The notes under the pieces: model-generated
Databases searched by the model: none
The model's input: only the letters and a program-made list of their open reading frames with translations
What the model was told of the DNA's origin: nothing
Made by a program: the position numbers and the translations under genes
Source: Candidatus Acidiferrum sp.
Lineage (GTDB): Bacteria; Acidobacteriota; Terriglobia; Acidiferrales; UBA7541
DNA: 64,000 nucleotides
Reading direction: 5' to 3'
Assembly: GCA_041485085.1 (NCBI GenBank)
Contig: JBGPIX010000001.1
Location: 8,564 to 72,563 of the forward strand
In this document: positions 18,652-61,172 of the stretch, piece after piece
Position numbering within the stretch: position 1 is the stretch's first letter
Layout of the letters: every line of letters begins with the position of its first letter

Positions 18652-18658
<7 letters not shown>

Positions 18659-23879: not shown

Positions 23880-23895
23880 GGCTGTCTTGCCGTTC

Positions 23896-24426
23896 TCACG
23901 ATACAAAGTCGGGATAATTCTGGTCGCGCTCGATGATGATTCGCTCGCCTTCAGGCCATTTAATGCCAAAAGCGGGATCGTTCCAGCGCACGCCTCGCGC
24001 GTGTTCCGCCGAATAGCGCTGCGCCATCTGGTAGAAAATCTCGGTGTCATCCTGCAGCGTCTGGAACCCATGCGCGAAATCTTCCGGGATGTACAGCATT
24101 CTGCGGTTTTCCGCGGAGAGCTCCACCGCGAAGTACTGCCTGAACGTCGCTGACGCCGGCCGCAAGTCGATGATGACGTCATAAATCGATCCCGAAGTGC
24201 ACCGCGCCAGCTTGGCTTCCGCGAACGGCGCTGCCTGGTAATGCATTCCTCGCAGTGTCCCTTTCCTCTTGTTGAAGGAAACGTTGCACTGCACCACTTG
24301 AGGATTTAGACCGTGCGCCTCGAATTCCTGCTGGCAGAACGTCCGGGCAAAGAAGCCGCGCTCGTCCGAGCGTCGTTCCAGTTCGATGACGAATGCGCCG
24401 GCCAGCTTAGTCTCCGTAAAGATCAA
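23896..24426 (-). CDS. rfbC: NDP-4-keto-sugar 3,5-epimerase (RmlC/RfbC family)
   Basis: DERGFF, GTLRGMHYQ, FAHGFQTL, RWNDP. Confidence 0.92.
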   Translation of the reverse strand: MIFTETKLAGAFVIELERRSDERGFFARTFCQQEFEAHGLNPQVVQCNVSFNKRKGTLRGMHYQAAPFAEAKLARCTSGSIYDVIIDLRPASATFRQYFAVELSAENRRMLYIPEDFAHGFQTLQDDTEIFYQMAQRYSAEHARGVRWNDPAFGIKWPEGERIIIERDQNYPDFVS

Positions 24427-34049: not shown

Positions 34050-35255
34050 CTAAGAATCGCTCCGCCGAGCCGCCATCTTGGCACTCCGCTGATCTTGGAG
34101 TGGCGCCTCATACCTGGAATACGAGTTGGCCGGGGCCTCCAGAAATAATCTGGTAACACCGAGCGCGAACCATGCCATCGATTGATCATCGCCAATCTGG
34201 AGGCGGTTGAGCATATACGGATCCCCGCCAGGAGAATTGAATCCCTCAATGGTGGTGACAGCCGATCGATAGCCCGAGCGCACCAGGAAATCACGCGCCT
34301 CAGAACTCACGTCGGCTGGTCTGCCGAAAGGATAAGCAAAGTCTTCAACCGGTGCATCGAGTCCGTCTTCGAGAATACGCTTGGTGACAACAAACTCTTC
34401 GTGGAAGGCCGCGGGATCCAGCCGGCTGACTGAAGGATGCGTCATCGTGTGCGCAGCGAAAGAGACGCCGCCACGTTGCATGGCTCGAACGTGGCCCCAA
34501 CTGAGCATGCGTCCTTCCAACTGGCCGACGGGCGGACTGATCCGCTGTTCAAACAACGAGCACCACTTCTGGCGCTGCAAATCCGGTATCGAACGAAGAT
34601 AGCAAACAATTTCCCAAGCGGCCGAGGCCCGCGACGTCGGGGTTGAGAGCGTAAATTGGCGCAGGCCGTCCATTTCCAGTTCTATCGTCGTAGCGCATGC
34701 ATGGGCGAGCGCGACAAATATTTTGTCATACCATGGCGCTTCACCAGTTTCCATGCAACGACCAATCAGATAAACGGTTGCACGAATTCTGTACTTCTCC
34801 AACACCGGGAAAGCGTATGTGTAGAGATCTCGATAACCGTCATCGAACGTAATGGCAAGCGTCGGCGTGACCTGACTCCCTTCCCTCAACTCGCGCCAAA
34901 GCTGACCCAGCGGGACAATCCTGTAATTCCTCTTGAGGTAGTACATCTGTGCCTCAAAGACCGCTGGCTCCAATCGCGAGAACAAAGGAACTCCCTCCGT
35001 GCCCACACGGTGATAGCAGAGGACGCCGAACTTCGAAACCGGCGTCCGTCGCAGCCGAGGCAAGCGCGAACCCGCGACCGAAAGTACTTGGTGAGTTCCC
35101 TCGATGCGTCTCGCCATGCGGAGAAGACCCGAGTGATAAAGACCGCTCGCGACCACCCTTTGCAATTTTTCCTTAAGGGCAACAACCGAAGCAGAATCGT
35201 CCCTAGAAATACCAGTCCGATCAGGGGCGGAGGCAGTCTTGGCTTCATGTTGCAT
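34050..35255 (-). CDS. CE4/NodB polysaccharide deacetylase
   Basis: LCYHRV, ITFDDGY, HTMTHP, FAYPFG. Confidence 0.9.
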   Translation of the reverse strand: MQHEAKTASAPDRTGISRDDSASVVALKEKLQRVVASGLYHSGLLRMARRIEGTHQVLSVAGSRLPRLRRTPVSKFGVLCYHRVGTEGVPLFSRLEPAVFEAQMYYLKRNYRIVPLGQLWRELREGSQVTPTLAITFDDGYRDLYTYAFPVLEKYRIRATVYLIGRCMETGEAPWYDKIFVALAHACATTIELEMDGLRQFTLSTPTSRASAAWEIVCYLRSIPDLQRQKWCSLFEQRISPPVGQLEGRMLSWGHVRAMQRGGVSFAAHTMTHPSVSRLDPAAFHEEFVVTKRILEDGLDAPVEDFAYPFGRPADVSSEARDFLVRSGYRSAVTTIEGFNSPGGDPYMLNRLQIGDDQSMAWFALGVTRLFLEAPANSYSRYEAPLQDQRSAKMAARRSDS

Positions 35256-37131
35256 GAAGGGCCTCTCGGGATCGCTCCAAATGTTGGCGGTGCCAGAGCT
35301 CGAGTGCGAGCAAATACCAGACGATCTCGCCGTAGTAGCTGGGAATTTGCTTGTGCAAATCCATCAATCGCTCGAAGAAACCCGTCCGGAAATAACCGCG
35401 GTGGCGAGTGCGTGAGTCGCGCATCAGATCTTGCATAAGCTCGTGCATACGAGGGTCCTGAAGGAGCCATTGCGCCAGGGGAACTCCGAAACCATGCTTC
35501 TTCTTGTAGAGTACGTTCGGCGGCAAGATGCCCTTCATCGCCTGCTTGAAGATGTAGCGCTTCTGAAATCCTTTAAGTTTAAGGGAAGCTGGAATGCGCC
35601 CCGAGAGTTCCGCGAGTCTGTCATCGAGCAACGGATAGCGAACTCTAACGCCAGCGAGTTCCGCGGTACCGGAAACTTTGCGGAGATCGTTATCGGCCAG
35701 AGTCATCTTGACGTCAAGATAGAGCATGCGGTTCAGCTCGCTGCTGGCTCTGGCCCGCGAAAAATGTCCCTCCGCGACGTCCAGCCAATCCGTCCGGCCA
35801 ACCAGCCGGAGGAATTCGTCTTCGAATATTTCTTCCGGTGGCATGCTGAGGAAAAATCCGTAAGACAGATATCGGCGAGGATTGGGCATATTTGCCCGGC
35901 GAACATAGCGGCGGGGAAGACTCAGTTTGCTGTCGTTGTCGGGTAGCAGGTTCACCCAAGGTTCAATGAGACCGCGACGCAGCCAGCGGGGGAGAAGATG
36001 ATAGATCGCAAAGCGCTTGTCGGCCGCGTAACGTTCATTGCCGCCGAAAAGTTCATCGCCCCCGTCTCCCGCCAGCAAGGTGTGGACACCCTGTTCTTTG
36101 GCAAGAACAGCACAATAGTAAGAGCCGATCGCCGAGGAATTGGCGAAAGGCTCGTCGTAGTACGTCAGTATCTTGTCCAGCGCATTCGTCGCGTCGGCGG
36201 GGGTGAGGAACTTTTCGTGGTGCCGCGTCTGAAAGAGGTTAGCAGTTGTACGAGCGAATTCAATCTCGCTGAACCGTGTTTCTTCAAAGGCTATTGAAAA
36301 GGACTGAGTGGGACGATGCTTTTCGCTTGCGAATGCAACCACGGAGCTGCTATCCGTGCCGCCGCTCAGGTAACAGCCCGTCGAAGGCTGCTCGCATCCA
36401 TCCAAGTGACGATGAACCGCGGCTCGCATCCCTTCACAAAGTTCACGCGACCAATGCGAAACGCTGTGATTCGTACTTTCAGGATACTCGATATCCCAAT
36501 ATTGCTTCTCGACAAGCCTTCCTCCTTCGAACATCAAAAAAGTTCCTGGACGAAGCTTCTCCATCCCAAGGTCACTCGTCATGGGGGCAGGGACAGAGGA
36601 ATAGAGAACGAATTGAAGAATCGCCTTCGGGTTTACTTCCGGAGGCGTATTTTGAACCATACGAATGGCGCCGGCGCGTGAGGCAAAAAGCAGCCGCTCC
36701 CCTTCACGTCGCCAGTAAAGGCTCTTAGCGCCGATGCGGTCAATCGCGAGGCAAAGTCGCTGCTCCTTTTCGTCCCAAAGGGAGAAGGAGAAGCTACCGC
36801 GCAATTGTTTGAATAGATCCATTCCTTGGCGAAGGTAAAGCCGGCCAATCAGTTCAGCGACTGACATGGACCTCGCCTCCTGAACTGGAATGGACAAGGT
36901 CTCGGCGGGCAAGTCGAAATCAACCAAATCCGCATCCGCCGCAACAGAGACACCGTTGACGACGGCCACTTGCTGGAAGCTCCAACGTCGCGCGACACCA
37001 AAGATAATCGAAGAACTGGAATGTACTTCACTATCGGATTCGCCGGGCAAGGCCAATGCGTCGAGCATGGATGCCAGAAGTCTGGCATCCAGTTCCCTTC
37101 CCGGCTCGCAAATTCCGCAGATTCCGCTCAT
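35245..37131 (-). CDS. Asparagine-synthetase-like protein lacking the glutaminase Cys (MSGICG)
   Basis: LSGGTDSS, DEPF, GDGGDELFGG are intact; N-terminal Cys is replaced by Ser and the Ntn domain is degenerate. Confidence 0.88.
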   Translation of the reverse strand: MSGICGICEPGRELDARLLASMLDALALPGESDSEVHSSSSIIFGVARRWSFQQVAVVNGVSVAADADLVDFDLPAETLSIPVQEARSMSVAELIGRLYLRQGMDLFKQLRGSFSFSLWDEKEQRLCLAIDRIGAKSLYWRREGERLLFASRAGAIRMVQNTPPEVNPKAILQFVLYSSVPAPMTSDLGMEKLRPGTFLMFEGGRLVEKQYWDIEYPESTNHSVSHWSRELCEGMRAAVHRHLDGCEQPSTGCYLSGGTDSSSVVAFASEKHRPTQSFSIAFEETRFSEIEFARTTANLFQTRHHEKFLTPADATNALDKILTYYDEPFANSSAIGSYYCAVLAKEQGVHTLLAGDGGDELFGGNERYAADKRFAIYHLLPRWLRRGLIEPWVNLLPDNDSKLSLPRRYVRRANMPNPRRYLSYGFFLSMPPEEIFEDEFLRLVGRTDWLDVAEGHFSRARASSELNRMLYLDVKMTLADNDLRKVSGTAELAGVRVRYPLLDDRLAELSGRIPASLKLKGFQKRYIFKQAMKGILPPNVLYKKKHGFGVPLAQWLLQDPRMHELMQDLMRDSRTRHRGYFRTGFFERLMDLHKQIPSYYGEIVWYLLALELWHRQHLERSREALHAT

Positions 37132-48036: not shown

Positions 48037-49440
48037 TTACTTTGCACCCCGGCCAGAAATCATAACCTTCGCCGTTTCAAATAACACCGCTAGATCAAGC
48101 ATTATGGAGAGGTGTTTGATATAAAAAAGATCGTACTCAAGTTTCGTTTTCGTTTCCTCAATGCTCGCCCCATACTGATACCTGACTTGGGCCCAACCCG
48201 TGATGCCTGGGCGAACCGAATGACGAAGACCGTAGTACGGAATCTGCTCTTCGAGTATGGCAACGAAATGAGGCCGCTCCGGCCGCGGACCCACAATGCT
48301 CATCTCGCCTCGCAAAACATTAATCACCTGGGGCAGTTCGTCAATCCGGAATTTGCGGATCCAATTCCCAACCCGAGTAACACGCTGGTCACCATCAGAC
48401 GCCCAGCGGGGTCCCTCCTTTTCCGCATTGTTGTACATTGAACGAAATTTAAGCATCTCAAACGGCCGCCCTCGAAGGCCTGTGCGTTCCTGTCGAAACA
48501 GGATTGGAAAACCAGACTCCAGGAAAATCGCCACAGCAACGGCGCCCAGCAGAGGCAGGCAAACAATCAGTGCAAAGAGGGAAACGATTATGTCCAGGGA
48601 CCGCTTTGCCCACACCAAGAAAGAGGACTTGCGAAATCCATCGGACAGAATCAACCAGCTGGGTGACAAGTACTCCAAAATGATCCGGCCAGTCATCCTC
48701 TCAAAAAAACTATGGGCGTCTTCGACACGGACCCCTGCAAATTTTAAGTGCAAGAGCTGCCGCACGGGCATACGGCCACGACGCTCCTGGAGCGAGATCA
48801 CAACATGATCGATCTTCTGTTCCTGGGCGATAGACTCAACGTCTACTGCTGCTCCGATGATCCCCGGATTCACCAGGGATTTCCCAATGTTCTCGCCTTT
48901 TTCATCAAGAAAGCCTACCACTTTCAATCGCAATTCGGGGCGGGAGACGATGTCACGTGCGAGAGAAATTCCGGTTGGCCCGGTTCCCATGATGAGCATG
49001 CGCTCGGTGTTGCCTGCAATTTGTCCGCTACCAAACCAAAGGAGTCGCCAGCCGAGTGTGAGTGCTACGATGACGGGAGCTGCTAGAGCAGCGATCCCAC
49101 GGCCAAACCCCACATCTGGATCAATAAAATAGCAAACCGCCAAGGCCAGGCATGCTACACCGAAAGCCTGGAAAAGCCTGACCAGAATTTCACTGTGACT
49201 GGCCGTAAGCCGAAAATCGTAGAGATCATTAAAGTAGAGGGACGTTTCGCAAATCACAATCACAAGAAGGGAACGAAAAAGCGTGCTCCAAGTCAGCAAA
49301 TAAGGAATAGCGGATCCAAAGCCGCCGACCGACGAGCGGGCAAATGTGGCCACTAGCAAGCCTATCCCGATCAACATGCAATCAGCGGCCACCAGGAGCA
49401 GAAGAGGAGTGGGAACTCTTTGACCACCAATCTTCAACAT
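48037..49440 (-). CDS. Priming polyprenyl-phosphate sugar phosphotransferase (WcaJ/EpsB type; TIGR03013-like)
   Basis: N-terminal TM helices, Rossmann-like domain, KFRSM, DELPQ, GPRPERP, RPGITGWAQ. Confidence 0.93.
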   Translation of the reverse strand: MLKIGGQRVPTPLLLLVAADCMLIGIGLLVATFARSSVGGFGSAIPYLLTWSTLFRSLLVIVICETSLYFNDLYDFRLTASHSEILVRLFQAFGVACLALAVCYFIDPDVGFGRGIAALAAPVIVALTLGWRLLWFGSGQIAGNTERMLIMGTGPTGISLARDIVSRPELRLKVVGFLDEKGENIGKSLVNPGIIGAAVDVESIAQEQKIDHVVISLQERRGRMPVRQLLHLKFAGVRVEDAHSFFERMTGRIILEYLSPSWLILSDGFRKSSFLVWAKRSLDIIVSLFALIVCLPLLGAVAVAIFLESGFPILFRQERTGLRGRPFEMLKFRSMYNNAEKEGPRWASDGDQRVTRVGNWIRKFRIDELPQVINVLRGEMSIVGPRPERPHFVAILEEQIPYYGLRHSVRPGITGWAQVRYQYGASIEETKTKLEYDLFYIKHLSIMLDLAVLFETAKVMISGRGAK

Positions 49441-49577
49441 TTCGAGACCTCTTGTATGGGCATCGCTCCAAGTCCCCTGAGGATTGTGAACTGGACCTTT
49501 TCGCTCTTGCCCAACTGGGCATCAGAGGAGGTAGCCAGCAGAAAGAAGCTCAAATAGCCAACCGGCCCGTAATGCAG

Positions 49578-49593
49578 TGCATTCGTCCGGCCA
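49578..49593 (-). promoter_or_regulatory. sigma54 promoter candidate for the priming transferase
   Basis: TGGCCGGACGAATGCA; dyad TAACCAATTGCAAGAGAATGATTTA at 49633-49657. Confidence 0.55.
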
Positions 49594-49847
49594 GATCCCC
49601 CACCAGTTCGTTTGCAAGGTTCTCGATGGTCCTAACCAATTGCAAGAGAATGATTTAGCTCCACTTCTAGCAGGAATTGCTCTGTGCGGAGATTTCCGTG
49701 CATTATCGATAACCTCAAATCGGACGCAGGCACTTAACCGATTGTTCGCGGTGCGGAGGCGTATCCCAGGGTGAAGCGCATGGTTCACTATGTCTGAGAC
49801 GAGACTAAATACTATCTTTTCAATATGTTATGAGATCGACTGACAGT

Positions 49848-49863
49848 TGGCACGTTTTGTGGG
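49848..49863 (+). promoter_or_regulatory. sigma54-like site with a deviant -12 element
   Basis: TGGCACGTTTTGTGGG (perfect -24, GG instead of GC at -12); dyad TAAATACTATCTTTTCAATATGTTA at 49806-49830. Confidence 0.4.
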
Positions 49864-50019
49864 TGAGTTCCCGCGACCAAGAAAACTTTTTCCATCTCTT
49901 GCCATGGGCGGTATCGAAGACAAGCGGAACTTAGGCCGGCATGCTGCAGAACCGTCGGAGAAGCAGGAAACCTATTGGTTTCCCCAGCTTGAGGACACAT
50001 CCCTGCCGTAGCGAGAGTC

Positions 50020-50035
50020 TGGCCACTATCTTGCT
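50020..50035 (+). promoter_or_regulatory. sigma54 promoter candidate for the GNAT-ACP-ligase operon
   Basis: TGGCCACTATCTTGCT (GG-N10-GC, TTGCT). Confidence 0.6.
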
Positions 50036-50217
50036 AGGATCATAGTGCGTCTCAAATATCGCGAATCGGAAGAGGGTGCTCCTCTATTGTGCAATCTTTG
50101 CAGTTTGTGTCGCACCCCCGGAATGCCCGGTTGCTAGGGAGCGTGTAGAACTTTGATTTCGCAGAGGAACATCCATTAGAGTTCGCAGTTATCGGAGGCC
50201 AGACCAATCTCAGGCAT

Positions 50218-51249
50218 ATGTCGATTCGCATTCGTTCTGCAGTCCTTGAGTCAGACAGCACGGATCTAATCGATCTATTTCGGCGGCATCTCACCGCGCT
50301 GTCCGATAGACATCGGTTCGACTGGCTCTACGTTCAAAATCCCTGCGGGGCGGCACGCGCCTGGGTGGCTTGCAATGGTGACAAGGGTGAAGTGGTGGGC
50401 GCTGCCGCAGCCTTTCCGCGAAAGATTCATCTCGCGGGGGTGGAAATGAGCGGATGGGTGCTAGGTGATTTTTGTTTGGAGGAAAAATTCCGGAGTCTAG
50501 GCCCCGCCGTGCAATTGCAACGTGCGTGTTTGGAAGCGGTCGCATCCCCTTTTGAGTTTTGTTACGACTTCCCGAGCCAAAGCATGCTGGCCGTGTATAA
50601 GAGATTAGGAGTTCAACAGACAGGATGTGTGGTGCGTTGGGCCAAACCTCTGCGCGTGGAGCAGAAGCTGGAACCAATAATTCGATCGCGAAAAATTGCA
50701 AAAACACTTGGGCTGATAGGTAATGCCGTTCTTGTCCGGCGGGGTTATAAGGGCGAGAAAAATGGTTGCGAAGTGACGCTCCACACGGGGCCCTGCGGAG
50801 AAGAATTTAGCGTGCTCGATCGGACACTAGCGGTGGGTCCAGGTGTGAGGCTTGCACGCACGGCCGAGTATTTGAACTGGCGTTACTTGGCTCACCCTTC
50901 TCAAGCACACGAAATCCTAACGGTACGCCGAGAAGGGATATTGGTCGGCTACGTTGTCCTAATCAGCGATCCGAATATCGCCAGTATTGTAGATATTCTT
51001 GCCGTGGAGGAACCTGCGATAATTGCGCTGCTCCTATCGGCGGCAGTCGAGAAAATACGGCGCCGGGGCGCCGCGGCGGCAAACCTGATCGCCGGCGATG
51101 GACATCCATTGAATGGCATTTTTGAACTAGCGGGATTCCGACGGCGGGAAGCATCGCCGTTCGTCGTCTGCACGGGAAGAAACCCGATGGTCGCAGAAAC
51201 TAGCTTTCAAAGAAACTGGTACTTGATGCATGGTGACCGCGATAGCTGA
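50218..51249 (+). CDS. Tandem-GNAT-fold acyltransferase
   Basis: WLY.QNP.G, D.....FRSLG, Y.FP, R..EYLNWRY..HP, C-terminal GD.D. Confidence 0.8.
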   Translation: MSIRIRSAVLESDSTDLIDLFRRHLTALSDRHRFDWLYVQNPCGAARAWVACNGDKGEVVGAAAAFPRKIHLAGVEMSGWVLGDFCLEEKFRSLGPAVQLQRACLEAVASPFEFCYDFPSQSMLAVYKRLGVQQTGCVVRWAKPLRVEQKLEPIIRSRKIAKTLGLIGNAVLVRRGYKGEKNGCEVTLHTGPCGEEFSVLDRTLAVGPGVRLARTAEYLNWRYLAHPSQAHEILTVRREGILVGYVVLISDPNIASIVDILAVEEPAIIALLLSAAVEKIRRRGAAAANLIAGDGHPLNGIFELAGFRRREASPFVVCTGRNPMVAETSFQRNWYLMHGDRDS

Positions 51250-51264
51250 CTTCTAGGAGCAAAG

Positions 51265-51528
51265 ATGAATCAGCCACAAACTGTAGAGGATCGGATTCGA
51301 GAGTTTATCTTGAAACAGTTTCCACTAGCCAGGAAAAACGGTCTCAGACCCGAAGAGAAATGGCTCGAAACCGGCATGATTGACTCTCTTGGAATTCTTG
51401 ATCTCGTGAATTTTCTCGAAGCGGAGTTTTCGTTGGGAGTTTCCGACGAGGAATTGCAGCCCGAGAACTTCAAATCCCTGGAAGCCGTTGCAGACTTTGT
51501 GCGCATTAAGGGCGAAAGCAAACGATGA
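51265..51528 (+). CDS. Acyl carrier protein
   Basis: GMIDSLG (phosphopantetheine Ser), E..PENF.S; acidic 87-aa protein. Confidence 0.92.
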   Translation: MNQPQTVEDRIREFILKQFPLARKNGLRPEEKWLETGMIDSLGILDLVNFLEAEFSLGVSDEELQPENFKSLEAVADFVRIKGESKR

Positions 51529-52646
51529 CGGGAGTTCGCCATTTCTCGAGGTTTGACGAACTGCCGCAGGAAAGCCGCTCGCTTTTCGAAAAAGCGGGAA
51601 GTCACTGTTTCTTCTTCGGCCTGCCCTGGTTCAGGGTGTTTATAAATCATGCTATGGATGAAGGCGACATCGTAAGGATCTACTGCTCTCGGTCACCCGA
51701 GGTTTCGGGAGATGCTGCGTTGGCTACAGTTCAGCGAGCAGCGGATTCCGGAGTTTTCAAACCAAGAAAACTCTCTTCCCTATCAAACTACTACACATCA
51801 CTCTTCAGTCCGGTATGGAACGGAGCCAGTGATCGTGAAGCAGCACAAGCGTTGGTCCGAGCTGTCGCCGCCGACTCACCGCCGTGGGATGAGATCGAAC
51901 TGAAGCCACTCGACGTCGACTGCCCCGCCTTTCACGCTCTGAAAGAGGGGTTGCAATCGGCGGGGTTTGTCGTACAGACCTACTTTTGCTTCGGGAACTG
52001 GTACCTCGAAGTTGACGGAAGGAGCTACCAACAATATGAAGCGGGCCTTCCCTCGATGCTCAGAAATACGCTGAAGCGTAGGGAGAAAAAACTGGAGAAA
52101 TCCGGACGAGCCAAAATTGCCATCGTCACTGGAGGCGACGAGTTGCAATCCGCCATCGACGCGTACAATCAGGTGTATTCAGCGAGTTGGAAAAAGCCTG
52201 AGCCATACCCGCGATTCGTGCCCCAATTGATTCAAACCTGTGCCCAACTGGGCGCACTGCGGCTTGGCGTGGTGCACGTTGACGGCGAGCCCGCCGCAGC
52301 GCAATTCTGGATTGTGCAGAACGGCGTCGCTCTGATTTACAAGCTTGCTTACGACGAACGCTTCACGGATTTGTCCGTCGGCACCATTCTGACCGCTACT
52401 CTAATGCGCCACGTGATCGACGTGGATAAGGTCCAAGAGGTGGATTACCTTACTGGAGATGATGCTTATAAGAGGGACTGGATGTCAGGCCGTCGGGAGC
52501 GCGGGGGTATACTTGCCATGAATCCTCGAACCGTGCGCGGAGCAGTTGCGATTGCAAGACATGTTGGCGGGCGTGCCGTGAAGCGTGCAGTTCAATCGCT
52601 AGGCAGACGCATGTTTAAACGACCGAACGCACCGGTGGGCTTCTGA
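51525..52646 (+). CDS. GNAT-fold protein (CelD/BcsL, Acetyltransf_6-like)
   Basis: LSNYYT, FGNWY, SWK.PE, YKLAYDE, DYLTGDD.YK.DWM. Confidence 0.85.
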   Translation: MTGVRHFSRFDELPQESRSLFEKAGSHCFFFGLPWFRVFINHAMDEGDIVRIYCSRSPEVSGDAALATVQRAADSGVFKPRKLSSLSNYYTSLFSPVWNGASDREAAQALVRAVAADSPPWDEIELKPLDVDCPAFHALKEGLQSAGFVVQTYFCFGNWYLEVDGRSYQQYEAGLPSMLRNTLKRREKKLEKSGRAKIAIVTGGDELQSAIDAYNQVYSASWKKPEPYPRFVPQLIQTCAQLGALRLGVVHVDGEPAAAQFWIVQNGVALIYKLAYDERFTDLSVGTILTATLMRHVIDVDKVQEVDYLTGDDAYKRDWMSGRRERGGILAMNPRTVRGAVAIARHVGGRAVKRAVQSLGRRMFKRPNAPVGF

Positions 52647-52700
52647 TCCAGTCAGGTCGTGACCTTAGAACGGTTCTTTCGAGAGAGTGCGGGAGACAGA

Positions 52701-54272
52701 ATGGATTTCTTGATCTGGCATCTGTTGCGGAATAGAGTGCGTCGCACGCCGGACAAGGAGGCTTTAGTCCATGGCGAGCAACGCCTAAGTTATCGCGAGG
52801 TGTACAAACAGGCTGCAAGTCTGGCGGCATCCTTGCGCACCACACATATCAAACGCGGTGATCGCATAGGTATTTATCTCGAAGCGTCCATCCCACAAGT
52901 CATCTCGATTTTTGGTATCTCGCAGGCGGGAGGCGTATACGTCCCCATAAACGCACTTTTGCACACCGAGCAGGTGATGCACATCGCGCTGGACTGCGGA
53001 ATGACAGGACTTGTAACGACGTCTTCAAAATTGGCATCGTTGGCCGACTTGATTCCTCAAATTCCTTCGCTTGAGTTTCTGGTTGTTACGGGTGAGGGCG
53101 AGATACCTGTCACGAGAATCCCTGTCTACCGGTTTGATGAACTTTGCTCTGCCGAGGCGCCATCTGTTTGGGCTGAGCCGGGGATCGAGAAGGATCTGGC
53201 CGCCATTCTGTACACGTCTGGTTCGACCGGAAAACCCAAGGGAGTCATGCTAAGTCATGCCAACATTGTCGCAGGTAGCCGAATCGTCTCGACGTACCTT
53301 GAGATCACGGAAGCGGAGAGAATTCTTGCCGTATTGCCTTTTAGCTTTGATGCGGGAATGAACCAGCTGATGACCGCCTTTGAAAAAGGCGGAACGCTGG
53401 TTTTGATTAACTTTGTTTTTGCGCGGGAAATTGTTCAGGCCCTATTAAGAGAGCGCATAACAGGCCTGGCAGGTGTGCCAACCCTTTGGAGTCTGCTCGC
53501 GCAGCCCAATTCGACACTGGATAGGCAGCCACTCCCCCATCTGCGATACATCACGAATACCGGCGGAGCAATGCCGCAAGCGGTCCTAAGGGTCCTCCAA
53601 CAAGTCCTGTCTACGACGAAGGTTTTCCTCATGTACGGCCTGACCGAGGCGTTTCGTTCGACTTATCTCCCGCCCGAGGAACTTGATCGGCGCCCCACAT
53701 CCATGGGTAAGGCTATTCCGGACACGGAGATCCTAGTCCTGAACGAGCAGGGCCAGGTCTGCAAACCCGGTGAGACTGGAGAATTAGTGCATCGCGGCCC
53801 CACGGTTTCGATGGGTTACTGGAATAGGCCAGAAGACACGGCCCGTGCACTGCGCGCGAATCCACTTTTGCCTCCGGAAATGGGCGATTGTGAAAGGGTC
53901 TGCTATTCCGGGGATTTAGTGAGAATGGATGAAGAGGGCTTCCTATATTTCCTCGGCCGGCGAGACGCCATGATCAAGTCTTCGGGCTTCCGTATCAGCC
54001 CGACAGAAGTCGAGGAAGTGCTATTCCAGACAGGAAAGCTGCGGGGCGCAGCAGTCATCGGAATCCCGGACGAGGTACTGGGCCAATCGATCAAAGCATT
54101 CGTTGTGTCGCGCGACGGCGATGCACTCGATGGAGACGCGCTCTTGGCCTTGTGCGCGGAGAAGATGCCGCGCTATATGGTACCGAAAGCGATCGAAGTC
54201 TTAACTGAACTGCCGAAGACAAGTAGCGGTAAAGTGGATTATCCGGCCTTGCGCCGGCGCGAAGGGTTGTGA
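52701..54272 (+). CDS. AMP-forming ligase, exosortase-A-system type (TIGR03098-like)
   Basis: YTSGSTGKPKG, PFSFDAG, MYGLTEAFRSTYL, SGD, PK.SSGK; start ATG 52701 with GGGAGA RBS. Confidence 0.92.
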   Translation: MDFLIWHLLRNRVRRTPDKEALVHGEQRLSYREVYKQAASLAASLRTTHIKRGDRIGIYLEASIPQVISIFGISQAGGVYVPINALLHTEQVMHIALDCGMTGLVTTSSKLASLADLIPQIPSLEFLVVTGEGEIPVTRIPVYRFDELCSAEAPSVWAEPGIEKDLAAILYTSGSTGKPKGVMLSHANIVAGSRIVSTYLEITEAERILAVLPFSFDAGMNQLMTAFEKGGTLVLINFVFAREIVQALLRERITGLAGVPTLWSLLAQPNSTLDRQPLPHLRYITNTGGAMPQAVLRVLQQVLSTTKVFLMYGLTEAFRSTYLPPEELDRRPTSMGKAIPDTEILVLNEQGQVCKPGETGELVHRGPTVSMGYWNRPEDTARALRANPLLPPEMGDCERVCYSGDLVRMDEEGFLYFLGRRDAMIKSSGFRISPTEVEEVLFQTGKLRGAAVIGIPDEVLGQSIKAFVVSRDGDALDGDALLALCAEKMPRYMVPKAIEVLTELPKTSSGKVDYPALRRREGL

Positions 54273-55597
54273 TGGACAACTTGGTCCGATCGCTAGTGCA
54301 GAAACGCTTCGGCACCCAGCATGGCGAATTGATTGTGGGTGGGGTTTCCGTCCGCGAGATGGCCGAGAAGTACGGGACGCCATACTTTGTTTACGACCGG
54401 AGAGTGTTCGACGAAAAACTCGATTTGCTGCAACGTTCTTTGCCCCACCGATTTAGGATTTTTTATTCGGTAAAAGCTAATCCGAACCAAGCGATATTGC
54501 GACATTTTTTGTCGCGCGGTTGCGGGCTTGAGATTGCTTCCTCAGGCGAGTTCCATCAAGCACTGCAAGCTGGGTGCGATCCCCGCCAGATGTTATTTGC
54601 GGGCCCGGGGAAAACTGAAGCAGAACTCGAACTCGTCCTCTCTCATGATATAGGGGAAATCCACTTGGAATCTGCGATCGAAGCCAGTCGCGTTGGTGCC
54701 ATTAGCCGACGCCTGGGTCGGCGCGCAAATGTGGCGATTCGAGTAAATCCCGCAGGCGAAGCAGAAGGGGGAGCCATGCGCATGGGCGGGCGTCCGGCAC
54801 CATTCGGGGTCGATGAAGAAGTGTTGGACGATCTGGTTGATCTGGTGACCAACGACCGGCAGCTTGATCTCCGCGGAATTCATTTGTTCACAGGCACGCA
54901 AATCCTGGACGCAAAAGTACTCTCAAATCAGTATCGCCACGGCCTTGAGGTCGCCAGCCGGGTGGCCAAGAAAATTGGCGGTCCACTACACACTGTGGAT
55001 TTTGGTGGCGGCCTTGGGATTCCCTACTTCTCACACGAACAAGAGTTGGATCTCGTGCAACTTCGCGCGGATCTCGCCGCGCTTTTTGCGGAAACTGAAA
55101 ATGATCCCTCATTCGAGGAGACAGAATTCCTGGTTGAGCCGGGCCGATATCTGGCGGGTGAGGCGGGCCTATACGTTGCGCGCGTCAACGATATCAAAGT
55201 TTCGCGCGGGAAAAAGTTCCTGATCCTCGATGGTGGGATGAACCATCATCTCGCCGCCTCCGGCAATTTAGGCCAAACAATCAAACGGAACTACCCCGTC
55301 GCTCTGATTAACAAGTTAGAGACTCAGGCCGATGACATTGTGGATGTCGTAGGGCCTCTCTGCACACCTCTCGACACCCTGGCTCGAAATGTCGCCCTGC
55401 CGAGCGCGGAGATCGGTGACTTGTTCGGAATCTTTCAGTCAGGCGCATACGCGCGTTCAGCAAGCCCTTTAGGTTTCTTGAGTCATGCTGCTCCTCCGGA
55501 AATATGGGTCGATGCTGGCAATGACACTCTGATCCGACGCAGGAGCGAATCTTGGGATACGCTCGTCAGCCAGTCGGCGGAATCGAACGTGGTTTAA
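54272..55597 (+). CDS. PLP-dependent decarboxylase, LysA/BtrK-like (TIGR03099-like)
   Basis: YSVKAN (Schiff-base Lys), DFGGG, EPGRY, DGGMNHHL, GPLCT, GAY; TGATG coupling with the ligase. Confidence 0.9.
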   Translation: MDNLVRSLVQKRFGTQHGELIVGGVSVREMAEKYGTPYFVYDRRVFDEKLDLLQRSLPHRFRIFYSVKANPNQAILRHFLSRGCGLEIASSGEFHQALQAGCDPRQMLFAGPGKTEAELELVLSHDIGEIHLESAIEASRVGAISRRLGRRANVAIRVNPAGEAEGGAMRMGGRPAPFGVDEEVLDDLVDLVTNDRQLDLRGIHLFTGTQILDAKVLSNQYRHGLEVASRVAKKIGGPLHTVDFGGGLGIPYFSHEQELDLVQLRADLAALFAETENDPSFEETEFLVEPGRYLAGEAGLYVARVNDIKVSRGKKFLILDGGMNHHLAASGNLGQTIKRNYPVALINKLETQADDIVDVVGPLCTPLDTLARNVALPSAEIGDLFGIFQSGAYARSASPLGFLSHAAPPEIWVDAGNDTLIRRRSESWDTLVSQSAESNVV

Positions 55598-55620
55598 CCG
55601 TCGAAGAACAGAAAGAATCC

Positions 55621-56901
55621 GTGGGACATGTCTTAATTATCGCGTATCACTTCCCACCGTGCGTGGGATCAAGCGGACTTCTTCGCTCGGAGAAATTCTC
55701 ACGGTACCTTCCGGAATTTGGCTGGCAGCCTATTGTCCTCACACTTCATCCGCGGGCATACGACTCGATTGATCTCCGGTCTAGTAAAAGGGTGCATGTG
55801 CCGGTGGTTCGGACGTTTGCACTCGATACAAAGAAGCATCTCAGCGTCTGGGGCTCCTACCTCGGCTGGATGGCGCTGCCGGATCGATGGGTGAGCTGGG
55901 TCCTTGGGGCGATTCCTACAGGCCTCTCAATCATCCGGAAATACCGTATCGAGGTAATTTTCTCCACATTTCCGATTTCGACCGCGATTCTCATCGGCCT
56001 CCTGCTCCATCGATTAACGGGAAAACCTTGGGTGGTCGATTTGCGTGACTCAATGACTGAGGAAGACTATCCAAAAGAAGCTAGGAGCAGACGAGTGCGG
56101 CGTTGGATTGAAGCTCAAGCCATGCGCCACGCATCGCGTGTGATCTTCACGGCCGCATCTACCCAGAGGATGTATCTCAATCGCTACCCGGTACTCTCGC
56201 GGGAGAAATGTCTCTTGATTCCAAATGGATACGATGAAGATGACTTTGCATCATTGAGCCTTCGTCGGCCACAACCCGTTCCCGCCTCCAGACCTTTGGT
56301 CCTGCTCCACACCGGTCTCGTTTATCCGGAAGAACGTGACCCGCGGCCATTTTTCCGTACCATCGGCCGGCTGAAACGGGAAAGAAGAATTAGTGCTGCG
56401 GATCTGGCTATCGTTTTTCGAGCGTCAGGATCCGAAGAGCTTTTCCAAAGAATGATCAATGAAGTCGATATCTCGGATATTATCCGGCTTCGGCCGCATA
56501 TCCCATATGAGCAGTCACTGCAGGAATGCGCGGACGCAGATGGATTGCTGTTGTTTCAGGCGGCGAATTGCGATCACCAGATTCCAGCCAAAGCGTATGA
56601 ATATCTTCGCATGGGCAGGCCGATTCTTGCGATGACGACGCATACTGGCGATACAGCCGCACTTCTCAACGAGGTAGGCGGAGCGACCATCGTCAAACTC
56701 GCGGAAGACGACGACATCTATGGCGGGCTGGCGGAATTTCTGGCGGCAATCCGGGCGGGAATTCACCCTCTGCCGCGGCTAGCCGATGTCCAACGGTACG
56801 CGCGGAAAAACCAAGCTAAAGAATTGGCCAAGTGTTTCACGGAGATTAGAAGGGAAACGTCGAATCCAGCAGAGCAACAAGCGGAAAGTCTGGCGCGTTA
56901 G
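55621..56901 (+). CDS. GT4-family glycosyltransferase
   Basis: LIIAYHFPP, PD...W, DLRD, IPNGYD, PAKAYEYL; start GTG 55621 is uncertain. Confidence 0.85.
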   Translation: MGHVLIIAYHFPPCVGSSGLLRSEKFSRYLPEFGWQPIVLTLHPRAYDSIDLRSSKRVHVPVVRTFALDTKKHLSVWGSYLGWMALPDRWVSWVLGAIPTGLSIIRKYRIEVIFSTFPISTAILIGLLLHRLTGKPWVVDLRDSMTEEDYPKEARSRRVRRWIEAQAMRHASRVIFTAASTQRMYLNRYPVLSREKCLLIPNGYDEDDFASLSLRRPQPVPASRPLVLLHTGLVYPEERDPRPFFRTIGRLKRERRISAADLAIVFRASGSEELFQRMINEVDISDIIRLRPHIPYEQSLQECADADGLLLFQAANCDHQIPAKAYEYLRMGRPILAMTTHTGDTAALLNEVGGATIVKLAEDDDIYGGLAEFLAAIRAGIHPLPRLADVQRYARKNQAKELAKCFTEIRRETSNPAEQQAESLAR

Positions 56902-56945
56902 CGGTTCTTGTTATTTTGCAATACTAGAAAGCAGAGTTGCCAATC

Positions 56946-58922
56946 ATGTGCGGAATTTATGGAGTGATGAACTTTAGAGAGCGCGAAACGCCACTCGCGC
57001 CACTCCTTGCTCGTATGGGAAGCGTCATCGAGCACAGAGGACCGAATGATAGCGGTACGTACCTCGGCCGCGGTATCGGACTTGGCATGAGGCGTCTCAG
57101 CATTATCGACGTTGCTGGTGGTCACCAGCCGATTTCCAACGAAGACGAAACTGTGTGGCTCGTTTTGAATGGTGAGATATATAACTTCGAGGAATTACGC
57201 GCAATCCTTGAGAAGAAGGGGCATCGCTTTCGGACGCACAGCGACACCGAAGTCATTGTGCATCTGTACGAAGAGGAAGGCCTGGCGTTTCTCAAACGGC
57301 TTCGGGGCATGTTTGCTCTTGCTCTATGGGACCTCAAACGCGAGCTTTTGATTCTCGGCCGCGATCGCATCGGAGAGAAACCCCTCTACGTCTGGCGGGA
57401 CGCAAACCGGTTGCTGTTTGCCTCGGAGTTGAAGTCCATCCTCCAGGTTGAAGACGTGCCAAGACGCTTGAATCTGGATGCACTGCAAGAATATCTTGCA
57501 CTCGGCTACGTGCCAGCCCCACTCACCATGTTGCGAGGAATCGAAAAGATCCTCCCCGGGCATTGCCTCGTTGTCGAAAAAGGCCGCATCCAGGAACATG
57601 AATATTGGGATGTGCCTTGCGGGCCCGTGGAGAATCATTCGGAATACGAATGGATTGAACGCATCCGCGATAAACTGCTCGAGACAGTCAAAATGCAGCT
57701 CGTAAGCGACGTGCCGCTTGGGGCTTTCTTGAGCGGCGGAATAGATTCAAGCACGATTGTCGCGGCAATGTCTCGCCTGACGGGTCAGCCCGTAAAAACG
57801 TACTCGATAGGATATGGGGACGAACAGAGTTACTACAATGAGCTTCCCTACGCAAAGATTGTCGCGCAAGCCTTCGGGACCGACCACCACGAGATCATTG
57901 TTCGCCCAGAAGTAAGCGAATTGCTGCCGAAGATGATGTGGCATTTGGATGAACCAATTGCGGACTCAGCCTGTCTGACAACGTACTTAGTGTCGCGGTT
58001 GGCGCGAGAGAGCGTGACCGTGATTTTGTCAGGCGTGGGCGGAGATGAGCTATTTGGAGGCTATCGGCGATACCTAGGGGACAGCCTGCATCGGTGGTAC
58101 CGTTTGCTACCTGGGCCAATCCGGCACAGTTGGCTGCCGACACTACTGCGGCAGGTCCCGCAAGACCGTGGGTCTGCCTGGAAAGACTACGCGCGTTACG
58201 CAGCAGCGTTCACAAAAACAGCAGAAGAAGATCCGGCGACTCGCTACATGAGCTACATAACGCTCTTTTCGCCCCGCGTCCAAGCAGACTTGCTGACGGA
58301 GGGAGCGCGCCAGAGCTTGAACGGAAACGAGACTGCGGCGGCGGCTTTGCGAAAGTACTTTGGGAGTCGCACTGAAGATGATTCCCTCAATCGCATTATT
58401 TATGCAGACTTGAAGACTTCACTGCCAGATGATTTGCTCGCCCTTACCGACCGGATGAGTATGGCCGCCTCGGTTGAATGCCGGGCGCCCTTCGTGGATT
58501 ATGAACTGGTCGAGTTAGCAAGCCGCATGCCTTCCTCTCTGAAAGTGCGCGGGCTCACCTTGAAGTACCTGTTGAAAAAAGCGGTGGCGCCGTGGCTGCC
58601 ACGTGAGGTCATTGAACGGAAGAAGCGCGGCTTTGGAGCCCCAGTCGGCGGATGGCTGCGGCAGGACTTGAAGCCGTTGATCCACGAGCTACTGTCTGAA
58701 ACACAAGTACAGCGGCGTGGCCTATTTCACTGGCCAGCCATCCGGCAACTTATCACCGCGCATGAGGAGCAGCGCAGCGATCATACCGATCATATCTTCG
58801 CGCTCCTTGCTCTTGAAACGTGGTGCCGAATCTACCTCGACGGCTCCGCGTGGAATGCCGAGGAATCTCGTTCGAGAAAACGGCCCGAAAGTGTTCCAGC
58901 TTCGGGATTAAGGACTGCGTAA
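56946..58922 (+). CDS. asnB: Asparagine synthase (glutamine-hydrolysing) family amidotransferase
   Basis: MCGIYG, HRGP, RRLSIID, NGEIYN, LSGGIDSS, GVGGDELFGGY. Confidence 0.92.
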   Translation: MCGIYGVMNFRERETPLAPLLARMGSVIEHRGPNDSGTYLGRGIGLGMRRLSIIDVAGGHQPISNEDETVWLVLNGEIYNFEELRAILEKKGHRFRTHSDTEVIVHLYEEEGLAFLKRLRGMFALALWDLKRELLILGRDRIGEKPLYVWRDANRLLFASELKSILQVEDVPRRLNLDALQEYLALGYVPAPLTMLRGIEKILPGHCLVVEKGRIQEHEYWDVPCGPVENHSEYEWIERIRDKLLETVKMQLVSDVPLGAFLSGGIDSSTIVAAMSRLTGQPVKTYSIGYGDEQSYYNELPYAKIVAQAFGTDHHEIIVRPEVSELLPKMMWHLDEPIADSACLTTYLVSRLARESVTVILSGVGGDELFGGYRRYLGDSLHRWYRLLPGPIRHSWLPTLLRQVPQDRGSAWKDYARYAAAFTKTAEEDPATRYMSYITLFSPRVQADLLTEGARQSLNGNETAAAALRKYFGSRTEDDSLNRIIYADLKTSLPDDLLALTDRMSMAASVECRAPFVDYELVELASRMPSSLKVRGLTLKYLLKKAVAPWLPREVIERKKRGFGAPVGGWLRQDLKPLIHELLSETQVQRRGLFHWPAIRQLITAHEEQRSDHTDHIFALLALETWCRIYLDGSAWNAEESRSRKRPESVPASGLRTA

Positions 58923-61172
58923 ATAGAAGAACGACACCCATGTACTTAGTCCTAGCCAACCAAACAAAGATAAGACTCTAAGCGCCGTGACGTACGCTCC
59001 GCCCATCCGCCGATAAAGAGTAAGAAAGAGTTCTTGAAAAGCAAGAATCATCAAGCCGAGTGCTGATGCTCGAAGCCGGTAGAGAAATAGATCTCTGAAG
59101 CGTGGATATCGCAATGCTGCCACCTCGTAATTTGCGTGAAGTGCCGCGATCTGGGCAGCCACATTCACTGGCGGAGCCTCCAAGACCCCTACGATCGGGC
59201 GGCGTGTGGCCGCGAACGTCTCGTCGATAGAGATCGTTTCGCCTTGGCGGGAAATAAGTTTTGAACCAGTCTTGAGCGGCAAAAGGATTTTCCAAGATCG
59301 GGCGTCGTTCCACTGAAGAACGCGGTCCTGCGATTGAGAAGAACCGGCAAGGGATGCGTTGTCATCCAACACCCATATCGTTACAGCCCATGCGCCTGCC
59401 GCAGACTGTTCTGTCACCACGGCTTCTGTCGGTTGAGGTTTCCCCCCCGCAAATGCCCAACCAGCAAATGGGTCACGATTCCCTCGGAGATTTCTAATCG
59501 TCAACGAAGCGGGGCCGAGAAAATAAGCTCGTAGTTGCCCAGGCACACCCTCAGCAAAGAGCCCGAACATGCCCGGTACCGTCCCAGGCTCCACGCGAAC
59601 ATTGGGAGCGGCAGTCCAAATTGTCTGTAAATTCTTCTTAGGAGCTCCGATGCATTCATCGACAAGCACCCAGATGGAAGTGGCCGCGTGAATCACCAAT
59701 CGTCGAACTACGAGAGCATCTGGTCCGCGACGCTCCATCTCGGCCGCCAATAGCCCGGGCAACTGCAGGGAGGTTAACAGGTTACTAGTTCGCGGTTGGG
59801 TGCACTCCTCTCCGACCAGGTGAGGTGCATTGGAGCCCTCCCAGCACTCTGCATGGCGGCGGTCGGGATCCTCGTAGGACCAGTAACCGGCATTCGTCCA
59901 CCATTCATGCCCTTTCGCCCATAGGAGAACACTCGTCTCGTCGGCGTGTTTGTGGCCATGCCCGGAATAGTACGACCAACTGAGGAGGGTCTGCGAAAGA
60001 GGAGGAAGAGAAGGCCAACTCTGGAGTCCATCCCAAAACACGGCATAACCTGCCACGGGATACAAACCAAATGATTCGCGAGGCTTTTCTTCTCTTTGTG
60101 ATGTCAGCGGACCGAATCGGCCGTTCTGGTCCGGCTGCGCAATCCGTACACCGCTCTTTTTCATTCCAATCCATGTGTCACCAAATGGAGGCAGAGAACC
60201 GTCGGGTCGTCGAATCTCGTCATAGAAACTCTCAGCTTTCTTATACTTACTGCTCCATTCAGGTGGAACATCCAAATGAAGGAGGGTCGCATAGCGGAGC
60301 ACGAGCCCGAAGAGGAAGAGCCCAGACTCGTGATATCCCGCGGAATGCTCAAGGATTACTCCATCGGGCCCGACAAAAAAAGAGAGCTGATCTCTAAGAC
60401 GAGAGAGCGCCGTCTGCTTGTATTCTTCAGCGCGCGGCAAAGAAGGAAAAGCGAGGCAGATTTGCCAAAGCGCGAGATTCTGCATGACTCCGTGGTTTGT
60501 GGCGAAGTTGTATTGCTCTGGCTTAGCCAAAAACGCCCCAGTGCGCGCCGCAAATCCCCATAACTCGGCTGCCACGTCAGAACGATAGTCTGGCCGGCGG
60601 CGGTAGATGTTCCAAAAGTCAGCCAGTGTGCGCGCGCGGGAAGCAACTGCATGATCGTTCCATAAGAATCCTTTATCTAACCATGCTTTTCTCTCGAACC
60701 TGGCCCAAGCCAAAATCGTATCTCGGGCCGCTTCATAGAACTCCTGTCTTCCCGTGTGCTCATAGGCGTCCAGGAAAGTTTCAGGAACGATGAGCCCAGC
60801 GAAATGCAACTGCCATTGGCCGGAACCGCGGTCAAGATCGGAAGGGGCAAATGGAAGTTGAATTTCAACGGGCTCAAAGCCGGGAATCTCCGCCCTCCCT
60901 CGTAAGAGCTTCTCGGCTGTGCCAATCAGTTGGACTTCACTCGGCCAATCGTACTCCAAAAGTCGGTGCGAGCGCATTTCTTCGAGCATCGCATCGGGAG
61001 GCTGCGTCCGGCCTTGCTCTATCATTCTTTGAGTGATGATCTCGCGGGGCACATAGTCGCGTTTGAATTCGGGATACCAAACAAGTTTTAGAAAGAATGT
61101 GAATAACAGAATCGTAAGTAAGTAGACTGCTCGTGATACTGCAAGCTTGTTCTGGCGCGAGTAGAGGGCCAC
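58908..61172 (-). CDS. Heparinase II/III-family protein with N-terminal and C-terminal TM helices
   Basis: W.DH...R, TNHGVMQ, EHSAGYH, P.FGD, GHKHAD; hydrophobic segments at both termini. Confidence 0.82.
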   Translation of the reverse strand: MALYSRQNKLAVSRAVYLLTILLFTFFLKLVWYPEFKRDYVPREIITQRMIEQGRTQPPDAMLEEMRSHRLLEYDWPSEVQLIGTAEKLLRGRAEIPGFEPVEIQLPFAPSDLDRGSGQWQLHFAGLIVPETFLDAYEHTGRQEFYEAARDTILAWARFERKAWLDKGFLWNDHAVASRARTLADFWNIYRRRPDYRSDVAAELWGFAARTGAFLAKPEQYNFATNHGVMQNLALWQICLAFPSLPRAEEYKQTALSRLRDQLSFFVGPDGVILEHSAGYHESGLFLFGLVLRYATLLHLDVPPEWSSKYKKAESFYDEIRRPDGSLPPFGDTWIGMKKSGVRIAQPDQNGRFGPLTSQREEKPRESFGLYPVAGYAVFWDGLQSWPSLPPLSQTLLSWSYYSGHGHKHADETSVLLWAKGHEWWTNAGYWSYEDPDRRHAECWEGSNAPHLVGEECTQPRTSNLLTSLQLPGLLAAEMERRGPDALVVRRLVIHAATSIWVLVDECIGAPKKNLQTIWTAAPNVRVEPGTVPGMFGLFAEGVPGQLRAYFLGPASLTIRNLRGNRDPFAGWAFAGGKPQPTEAVVTEQSAAGAWAVTIWVLDDNASLAGSSQSQDRVLQWNDARSWKILLPLKTGSKLISRQGETISIDETFAATRRPIVGVLEAPPVNVAAQIAALHANYEVAALRYPRFRDLFLYRLRASALGLMILAFQELFLTLYRRMGGAYVTALRVLSLFGWLGLSTWVSFFYLRSP

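Follow-up and report, generated by a model that had tools for sequence, protein, structure and literature searches.

Several natural-product pathways hold an acidic amino acid on a carrier protein while it is decarboxylated. Side-chain loading of glutamate or aspartate onto an acyl carrier protein (ACP), followed by alpha-decarboxylation by an enzyme that uses pyridoxal 5'-phosphate (PLP), is established for BtrJ/BtrI/BtrK, CtaD/CtaE/CtaF and FlvN/FlvL/FlvO (PMC11350588), and VinN/VinL/VinO follows the same load-then-decarboxylate logic (PMC10662134). In the vicenistatin (Vin) and fluvirucin B2 (Flv) pathways, the parts are a stand-alone adenylating enzyme of the ANL superfamily, a stand-alone ACP and a PLP decarboxylase. 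The amino acid is aspartate or 3-methylaspartate, which is attached by the side-chain carboxyl and undergoes alpha-decarboxylation while carrier-bound (PMC11350588, PMC10662134). Here we examine a seven-gene operon that likewise encodes these three parts, found in a 64,000-nucleotide stretch of Candidatus Acidiferrum sp. (contig JBGPIX010000001.1; the whole stretch is hereafter called the window). On the strength of sequence comparisons we lean, by a modest degree, towards the view that its first five products, two GNAT-type proteins, an ACP, a ligase and a decarboxylase, form a carrier-protein module that makes an omega-amino-acyl group for decoration of the exopolysaccharide (EPS) of the surrounding locus.

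A second precedent concerns the acceptor. In Porphyromonas and Tannerella, the deacetylase VimE, the FemAB/GNAT-type transferase VimA and the AsnB-type enzyme WbpS act together on an amino uronic sugar to make the 2-N-aminoacyl (seryl or glycyl) uronamide linking sugar of type IX secretion system (T9SS) cargo (PMC7468200). That study had itself drawn attention to three families of PEP-CTERM loci, namely pepcterm_femAB, the deacetylase and TIGR03108 (PMC7468200). The window holds matching families (pepcterm_polyde, pepcterm_femAB and TIGR03108). However, ACP, ligase and decarboxylase are all absent from the Vim pathway, which supplies seryl or glycyl groups, whereas the donor proposed for the window is an ACP thioester and its acyl group an omega-amino acyl.

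Carrier-bound decarboxylation is textbook knowledge in natural-product work, and the pairing of the ligase with the decarboxylase is already catalogued: the two belong to TIGR03098 and TIGR03099, families curated without assigned chemistry, much as the original prediction from this sequence had said of the pair. As in the set labelled “exosortase A system-associated”, the window pair is adjacent and lies among XrtA-type EPS families. Two alpha/beta hydrolases, TIGR03100 and TIGR03101, are further members of the proteobacterial exosortase-A set; neither is among the annotated genes of the cassette, which has tandem GNATs in that place, and no search was aimed at either family. A literature search for the names TIGR03098 and TIGR03099 found no mention of them, and one for beta-alanyl or 4-aminobutyryl substituents of polysaccharides gave nothing useful. 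What the window adds is a variant with a tandem-GNAT transferase and a natural comparison, among congeners, of loci with and without the cassette.

The operon and its ligase–decarboxylase pair

The seven open reading frames (ORFs) are co-directional on the plus strand (50218-58922) and encode, in order, a tandem GNAT protein (GNAT1), the ACP, a PF13480 GNAT protein (GNAT2), a TIGR03098 ligase, a TIGR03099-like decarboxylase, a GT4-fold glycosyltransferase and a glutamine-dependent AsnB (AsnB3), an arrangement that the original prediction had described correctly (Table 1). Spacing is minimal, with a gap of 15 nucleotides between GNAT1 and ACP and overlaps of 4 nucleotides at the ACP/GNAT2 and ligase/decarboxylase junctions. 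Promoter and terminator scans of 49300-59300 gave site counts not above those of shuffled sequence. A profile of close homologues recovered 80 related loci.

The ligase exceeds the cut-off of TIGR03098 and matches that model almost from end to end. The motif FSFDAG, in which the original prediction saw an Asp at the position that nonribosomal peptide synthetase (NRPS) adenylation domains use to bind an amino group, spans residues 228-233, and its Asp231 does align with the A4 Asp of both LgrA adenylation domains and with D230 of VinN. In VinN, residues D230, F231, S299, K330 and R331 allow 3-methylaspartate or aspartate to be bound as a beta-amino acid; these roles are taken from a review (PMC11253843). 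The ligase segment MYGLTEAFRSTYLPP aligns without gaps to the VinN segment MYGQTECKRISIMPP, from MYG.TE to PP, such that R333 corresponds to VinN R331 and T301 to S299. The ligase thus has the Asp and the Arg of VinN together with a beta13-beta14 loop of VinN length. When the pocket segment alone is used as a query, VinN and CmiS6 are the best matches, alongside 4-chlorobenzoate ligase. A Stachelhaus-type code was anchored on GrsA, and only those positions confirmed by the LgrA and VinN alignments are used as evidence.

Ten pocket positions (D231, A232, N235, A271, T299, T301, M325, R333, S334 and K525) vary little or not at all among 72 orthologues from many phyla, D231 and R333 being invariant in all 72, which argues for one conserved substrate. 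The simplest reading of this pocket is a substrate with both an amino group and a carboxylate, and we propose that the ligase uses the side-chain carboxyl of an amino-dicarboxylic acid to attach it to the ACP. Among such acids we slightly favor L-aspartate, with L-glutamate possible, because the loop matches that of VinN and because a 4-aminobutyryl thioester cyclizes readily. Butirosin synthesis includes a protecting step for it, and the minimal cassette has none.

TIGR03099 is by far the best family for the decarboxylase, the lysA model giving 283.5 bits and being likewise below its cut-off. Among all solved structures, the best relative by far is BtrK (7ru7/2j66), the butirosin enzyme whose substrate is L-glutamyl-S-BtrI; it is matched end to end with 264 bits, as compared with 180 bits for the best LysA. 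The enzyme has the motifs HHLAAS (within NHHLAAS) and CTPLD in common with BtrK, whereas the aligned LysA has NDLIRPS..Y and CETGD, segments that carry the residues holding the distal end of diaminopimelate. Across 81 family members, no variation is seen in HHLAAS, CTPLD, the PLP lysine (SVKANP) or the EPGR motif. The protein is therefore a Fold-III PLP enzyme closer to BtrK than to diaminopimelate decarboxylases and lacking the LysA motifs, and we propose on this basis that it is an aminoacyl-S-ACP alpha-decarboxylase. Identity with the lysA of the genome was considered and rejected: a bona fide lysA lies on another contig (C235; 435 bits, above the curated cut-off), so the cassette enzyme is a specialized paralogue not needed for lysine synthesis. 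A predicted complex of the decarboxylase dimer with the ACP scored 0.13 against a mark of 0.32 and counts neither way. Close homologues are very abundant in soil metagenomes, where they carry the JGI label “diaminopimelate decarboxylase”.

The same logic could serve a different amino-dicarboxylic acid, such as meso-diaminopimelate (which would yield lysyl-S-ACP), 2-aminoadipate or aminomalonate. The decarboxylase derives from the diaminopimelate decarboxylase clade (PMC7857480), and the ligase pocket formed by A232, N235, A271, T299 and T301 is small and polar and differs from that of VinN at two positions, so that a longer polar substrate could fit. We nonetheless regard these substrates as very unlikely, since the closest characterized relatives use glutamate (BtrK) and aspartate or 3-methylaspartate (VinN), and the ungapped match to the VinN loop fits the beta-amino-acid binding mode.

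With aspartate or glutamate as the substrates we consider most likely, the cassette can be set against its nearest counterparts. The butirosin system (BtrI/BtrJ/BtrK, with BtrH) offers the closest decarboxylase and, as does the window, an 87-residue carrier protein; its end use, the acylation of a sugar amine, is also the one proposed here. The window has no equivalents of BtrO/V, BtrH or BtrG, however, and its substrate may be aspartate rather than glutamate. BtrJ is an ATP-grasp ligase, whereas the window ligase is an ANL enzyme, and the closest precedent for the latter is VinN/FlvN. In contrast to the Vin and Flv genes, the cassette resides in an EPS locus and not in a polyketide cluster, and it lacks a VinM-type second adenylating enzyme and a VinK-type acyltransferase; a tandem GNAT would take the product instead.

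Candidate transferases, proposed acceptor and steps

The ACP matches its families weakly (PF00550, 19.1 bits; AmcB, E 2e-9), and the GxxDSLG residues G37, D40, S41 and G43 are invariant in 71 sequences. GNAT1 has no significant match in Pfam or NCBIfam, where only PF13527 appears, below threshold, at E 0.013. An AlphaFold 2 model (pLDDT 93) shows a tandem GNAT fold resembling MAB_4324 (Z 22.1), NMT (21.6), Eis2 (21.3) and a glucosamine N-acetyltransferase (19.2), and more distant from FemA (14.3) and FemX (13-14). The first gene product is consequently not FemAB-like, which the wording “GNAT/FemAB-like” of the original prediction had left possible, but of an Eis/NMT-like tandem type. Its R92-x-x-G95 motif is invariant. 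Modeling makes GNAT1 a candidate aminoacyl-ACP:acceptor N-acyltransferase. We favor it as the constant transferase because a GNAT1-type gene stands beside the ACP in 64 of 71 loci, whereas a PF13480 GNAT2 is found in only 15 of the 71, its place elsewhere being taken by a GNAT1 paralogue between ACP and ligase or by nothing. GNAT1, and not the PF13480 protein, is thus the regular partner of the cassette.

GNAT2 matches PF13480 only. Neither it nor GNAT1 matches the pepcterm_femAB model TIGR03019, and no NCBIfam match was obtained at 1e-5. The possibility that GNAT2 is a duplicate of the pepcterm_femAB of the locus was rejected, as BLASTP finds no similarity between the two. GNAT2 is an optional second transferase that is independent of the ACP system, because one congener (G071) keeps it without ACP, ligase or decarboxylase. 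The GT4 product is modeled (pLDDT 91.6) as a complete GT-B/GT4 fold, with Z scores of 31.2 to BshA, 30.7 to PimB' and 29.0 to PimA. Its start is probably the GTG at 55621 rather than 55552, since homology begins near residue 24 of the longer ORF, where this GTG sits.

The host genome is a metagenome-assembled genome (MAG) of an acidobacterium (85% complete, 532 contigs), its phylum being taken from the names of the closest matches, and the window apart from the cassette is a complete Wzx/Wzy-type EPS locus. Family searches place a full XrtA/PEP-CTERM-type EPS locus on the minus strand upstream of the operon, at 26-49 kb. It comprises a TIGR03013 priming transferase, an exporter, a chain-length determinant, an ATPase and a tyrosine kinase; pepcterm_femAB, the stp2 and stp3 glycosyltransferases and two AsnBs; and a CE4 deacetylase, a Wzy_C-type “O-ligase” and pepcterm_polyde. 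The three deacetylases and three AsnB-fold proteins counted in the original prediction are all present in the window. The CE4 deacetylase encoded at 34050-35255 is a candidate for the enzyme that frees a sugar amine for later acylation.

The features can be arranged into the following putative series of steps. The ligase would adenylate an acidic alpha-amino acid (L-aspartate, possibly L-glutamate) at its side-chain carboxyl, with the amino group bound by Asp231 and the alpha-carboxylate by Arg333, on the pattern of VinN, and would then thioesterify it to the phosphopantetheine on Ser41 of the ACP. The BtrK-like decarboxylase would next remove the alpha-carboxyl on the carrier to give beta-alanyl-S-ACP or 4-aminobutyryl-S-ACP. 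More tentatively, GNAT1 might transfer this acyl group to an amine, the likely acceptor being the amino sugar freed by the CE4 deacetylase, either on a lipid-linked repeat unit or as a nucleotide sugar. As an optional extra transferase, GNAT2 may modify the new amine, by capping or extending it, or may acylate a second position. As part of the same decoration step, the GT4 enzyme would add a sugar and AsnB3 would convert a carboxylate to a carboxamide.

The idea that aspartate or glutamate is loaded, decarboxylated in the manner of BtrK and handed on by a GNAT was part of the original prediction, and every sequence test run agrees with it. Several points nevertheless weigh against it. All steps are inferred, and the acceptor is deduced from gene neighborhood alone. 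The ligase is about equally far from a fatty-acyl-CoA (coenzyme A) synthase (202 bits), VinN (186 bits) and the LgrA A2 domain (180 bits), with feruloyl-CoA synthetases also near 200 bits. At A5 it has the YGLTE of acyl-CoA-type enzymes and not the YGPTE of NRPSs, and its score with the NRPS adenylation-domain model TIGR01733, 267.5 bits, is under the cut-off of 317.4. Relative to VinN, F231 is replaced by Ala (A232) and K330 by Phe (F332), and S299 is kept only conservatively as Thr. The decarboxylase falls below the cut-off of its own family, TIGR03099 (dCO2ase_PEP1), which is 478.45 bits. None of the 80 related loci belongs to a cultured organism. Finally, AsnB2 and pepcterm_femAB also occur in congeners that have no cassette, and their link to it is hence loose.

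In an alternative arrangement, the two enzymes share no carrier-bound substrate. The ligase would then charge the ACP with a fatty acid or another organic acid, or form a CoA ester, while the decarboxylase would act on a free amino acid, producing for example a diamine that is later acylated. After TIGR03098, the next NCBIfam matches of the ligase are long-chain fatty-acid-CoA ligase models (359.8 and 307.6 bits), its YGLTE motif points the same way, and enzymes of the LysA clade that act on free substrates do exist, such as D-Orn/Lys decarboxylase. We judge this arrangement quite improbable, given the invariant Asp231 and Arg333 at the amino- and carboxylate-binding positions of VinN, the much closer relationship of the decarboxylase to the ACP-dependent BtrK than to any free-substrate enzyme, and the overlap of the two genes, which remain adjacent in nearly all related loci.

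Table 1. Coordinates of the cassette genes and of related features elsewhere in the window
Feature	Coordinates	Strand	Basis
GNAT1 (gene 1), tandem GNAT, 343 residues	50218..51249	+	Predicted structure
ACP, stand-alone, 87 residues, Ser41 as phosphopantetheine site	51265..51528	+	Weak ACP family matches
GNAT2, PF13480 (Acetyltransf_6, FemAB/CelD-type) acyltransferase	51525..52646	+	PF13480, 110 bits
Ligase, ANL-superfamily adenylating enzyme	52659..54272	+	TIGR03098 (ligase_PEP_1), 639.8 bits (cut-off 592.35; model positions 2-515 of 517)
Decarboxylase, Fold-III PLP enzyme, BtrK-like (TIGR03099 type)	54269..55597	+	TIGR03099, 446.9 bits
GT4-fold (GT-B) glycosyltransferase (gene 6)	55621..56901	+	PF13579/PF13439 on N-terminal half; predicted fold
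AsnB3, glutamine-dependent AsnB-type amidotransferase	56946..58922	+	TIGR01536, 494.8 bits, over cut-off, for the ORF 56937-58922
AsnB2, AsnB paralogue without glutaminase Cys	35245..37131	-	N-terminus MSGICG
CE4 polysaccharide deacetylase, 401 residues	34050..35255	-	PF01522, 69 bits
pepcterm_femAB (TIGR03019) of the EPS locus	40309-41403		Family match
Deacetylase	26060-26917
LmbE-like deacetylase	18652-19305

Distribution of the cassette across phyla and within the genus

The 80 related loci span about nine phyla (Acidobacteriota, Methylomirabilota, Eisenbacteria, Binatia, Nitrospirota, Gemmatimonadota, Planctomycetota, Verrucomicrobiota and “delta-proteobacterial” MAGs). Of 75 loci, 71 have the ligase gene immediately ahead of the decarboxylase gene, and an ACP is present in 66 of 71; GNAT1, ACP, ligase and decarboxylase are the constant core of the cassette. 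In loci of several phyla (L027, L040, L041, L044, L047, L073, L079 and L087) the gene order is AsnB2, CE4 deacetylase, GNAT1, ACP, ligase, decarboxylase, GT4 and O-ligase. In the window, by comparison, AsnB2, the deacetylase and the O-ligase form an unbroken run on the opposite strand (37131-32697), and the cassette and GT4 gene lie beside the priming transferase instead, as if the block had been relocated as one unit. Some Acidobacteriaceae (L048, L064, L081 and L085) have a second, divergent ligase/decarboxylase pair after the GT4 gene, on the opposite strand, which scores about 335 and 295 bits to the window ligase and decarboxylase.

This distribution bears on where the acyl group goes. 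The same carrier chemistry might deliver its product to a lipid, to the core of lipopolysaccharide, to a protein or to a small secreted molecule rather than to EPS. The known Btr, Vin, Flv and Cta cassettes feed small molecules, some of the related loci have few EPS genes in their 10-kb flanks (for example L035, L042, L084 and L070), and the reliance on neighborhood for the acceptor leaves room for such destinations. They appear unlikely to us, however. A priming glycosyltransferase lies beside the cassette in 34 of 57 fully flanked loci, and in 48 of 75 the decarboxylase gene is followed by GT4; GNAT1 has a CE4 deacetylase gene immediately before it in loci of Eisenbacteria, Binatia, Nitrospirota and others; and family searches found no polyketide synthase, NRPS or lipid-synthesis genes in the window.

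Comparison within the genus also fits decoration of a polymer. Eight of 61 sampled genomes, the window's own counted, have the EPS locus as judged by AsnB2 and pepcterm_femAB, and two of these eight, both good assemblies, are without the cassette. In one (G086; 95% complete, 2 contigs), the cassette site contains no more than a PF13480 gene, GT4 and AsnB3 (L094, G086:C2:5095000-5114900, 1674-6642). The other (G071) has GNAT2 there, followed by aminoglycoside-3-N-acetyltransferase-like, FkbH-like/HAD and MaoC-SDR fusion genes (L095, G071:C9:236400-256300, 12782-19602). Because congeners with the locus either lack the cassette or have another acyl module in its place, the cassette is an accessory, swappable unit and its site a slot for alternative acyl-decoration modules. 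Such a variable slot is what decoration of the EPS by the cassette would lead one to expect.

The association with exosortase that the family names imply is less regular. An exosortase (PF09721) was found neither in the window's own MAG, with its 85% completeness, nor in the fairly complete cassette carriers G064, G065 and G066, whereas it is present in G061-G063, G078 and G084; where other carriers have it, it lies within or near the locus. The label “exosortase-associated” is therefore not borne out for this lineage, although the incompleteness of the MAG forbids a firm negative. An XrtA-type EPS locus without detected PF09721 is also listed for the two congeners that lack the cassette, G071 and G086. 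A crude regular-expression scan of the window returned no PEP-CTERM-like C-terminus. A giant ORF of 2823 residues on the minus strand (2325-10796) has a signal-peptide-like N-terminus and is without a PEP-CTERM-like tail.

AsnB paralogues, other window genes and implications

The original prediction had envisaged the three AsnB paralogues of the window (AsnB1, AsnB2 and AsnB3) as amide ligases that could help to build a possibly cross-linked matrix, a suggestion that finds no support for the group as a whole. AsnB3 (MCGIYG...HRGPN) and AsnB1 (MCGICG...HRGPD) each retain the N-terminal Cys and an intact glutaminase domain. The MCGIYG N-terminus and HRGPN/D motif of AsnB3 are conserved in 18 orthologues, and the protein also matches TIGR03108 with 600 bits, below the cut-off. 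From these motifs, AsnB3 probably amidates a sugar carboxylate. AsnB1 and AsnB3 are unlikely cross-linkers, because they keep the glutamine-amidotransferase Cys and HRGPD motifs and because the AsnB precedent WbpS makes a plain uronamide (PMC7468200). A 754-residue protein with Heparinase II/III N- and C-terminal domains and C-terminal membrane helices is encoded convergently at 58908-61172 (minus strand), overlapping the end of AsnB3 by 15 nucleotides, and might act on the EPS as a polysaccharide lyase or epimerase.

AsnB2 alone lacks the Cys. Its N-terminus reads MSGICG and no HRGPD motif is found, in the window or in 11 orthologues, features indicating a putative glutaminase-dead, AsnB-like adenylating enzyme that might in principle join a carboxylate to some amine that is not ammonia. 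A role in cross-linking or attachment is conceivable, since in other phyla AsnB2 often heads the cassette operon, directly upstream. The omega-amine of a beta-alanyl or 4-aminobutyryl sugar might then serve as the nucleophile for covalent amide links in the matrix, along either of two routes: carboxylates adenylated by AsnB2 could form glycan-glycan or glycan-peptide cross-links, or, in exosortase-bearing lineages, the C-termini of sorted proteins could be joined to it, by analogy with the 2-N-aminoacyl linking sugar used by the T9SS sortase. Taken together, these two routes are speculative and have, in our estimation, a slim chance of being correct.

Two further features of the window lie apart from the cassette. 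A second polysaccharide pathway, of the ABC-transporter type (minus strand, 12980-20164; Wzm/Wzt-like genes at 16391-18673), also has GT2 and GT4 genes, the LmbE/BshB1-like deacetylase gene of Table 1 and a glucose-1-phosphate cytidylyltransferase-like gene. Within the glycan locus, a DUF4910/DUF2172 (M28 peptidase-like) protein with a C-terminal winged helix is encoded at 22542-24182 on the minus strand.

The proposal that the cassette furnishes an omega-amino-acyl group for EPS gives testable chemistry to families that have been catalogued only as “exosortase A-associated”. If it is correct, a natural-product strategy, in which an amino acid is decarboxylated while bound to a carrier protein, has been recruited to place a flexible primary amine on exopolysaccharides, and its bearers are uncultured soil phyla that include Acidobacteriota, Methylomirabilota, Eisenbacteria and Nitrospirota. 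A primary amine on the polymer would alter the charge, metal binding and adhesion of the matrix, and could offer a handle for covalent attachment.

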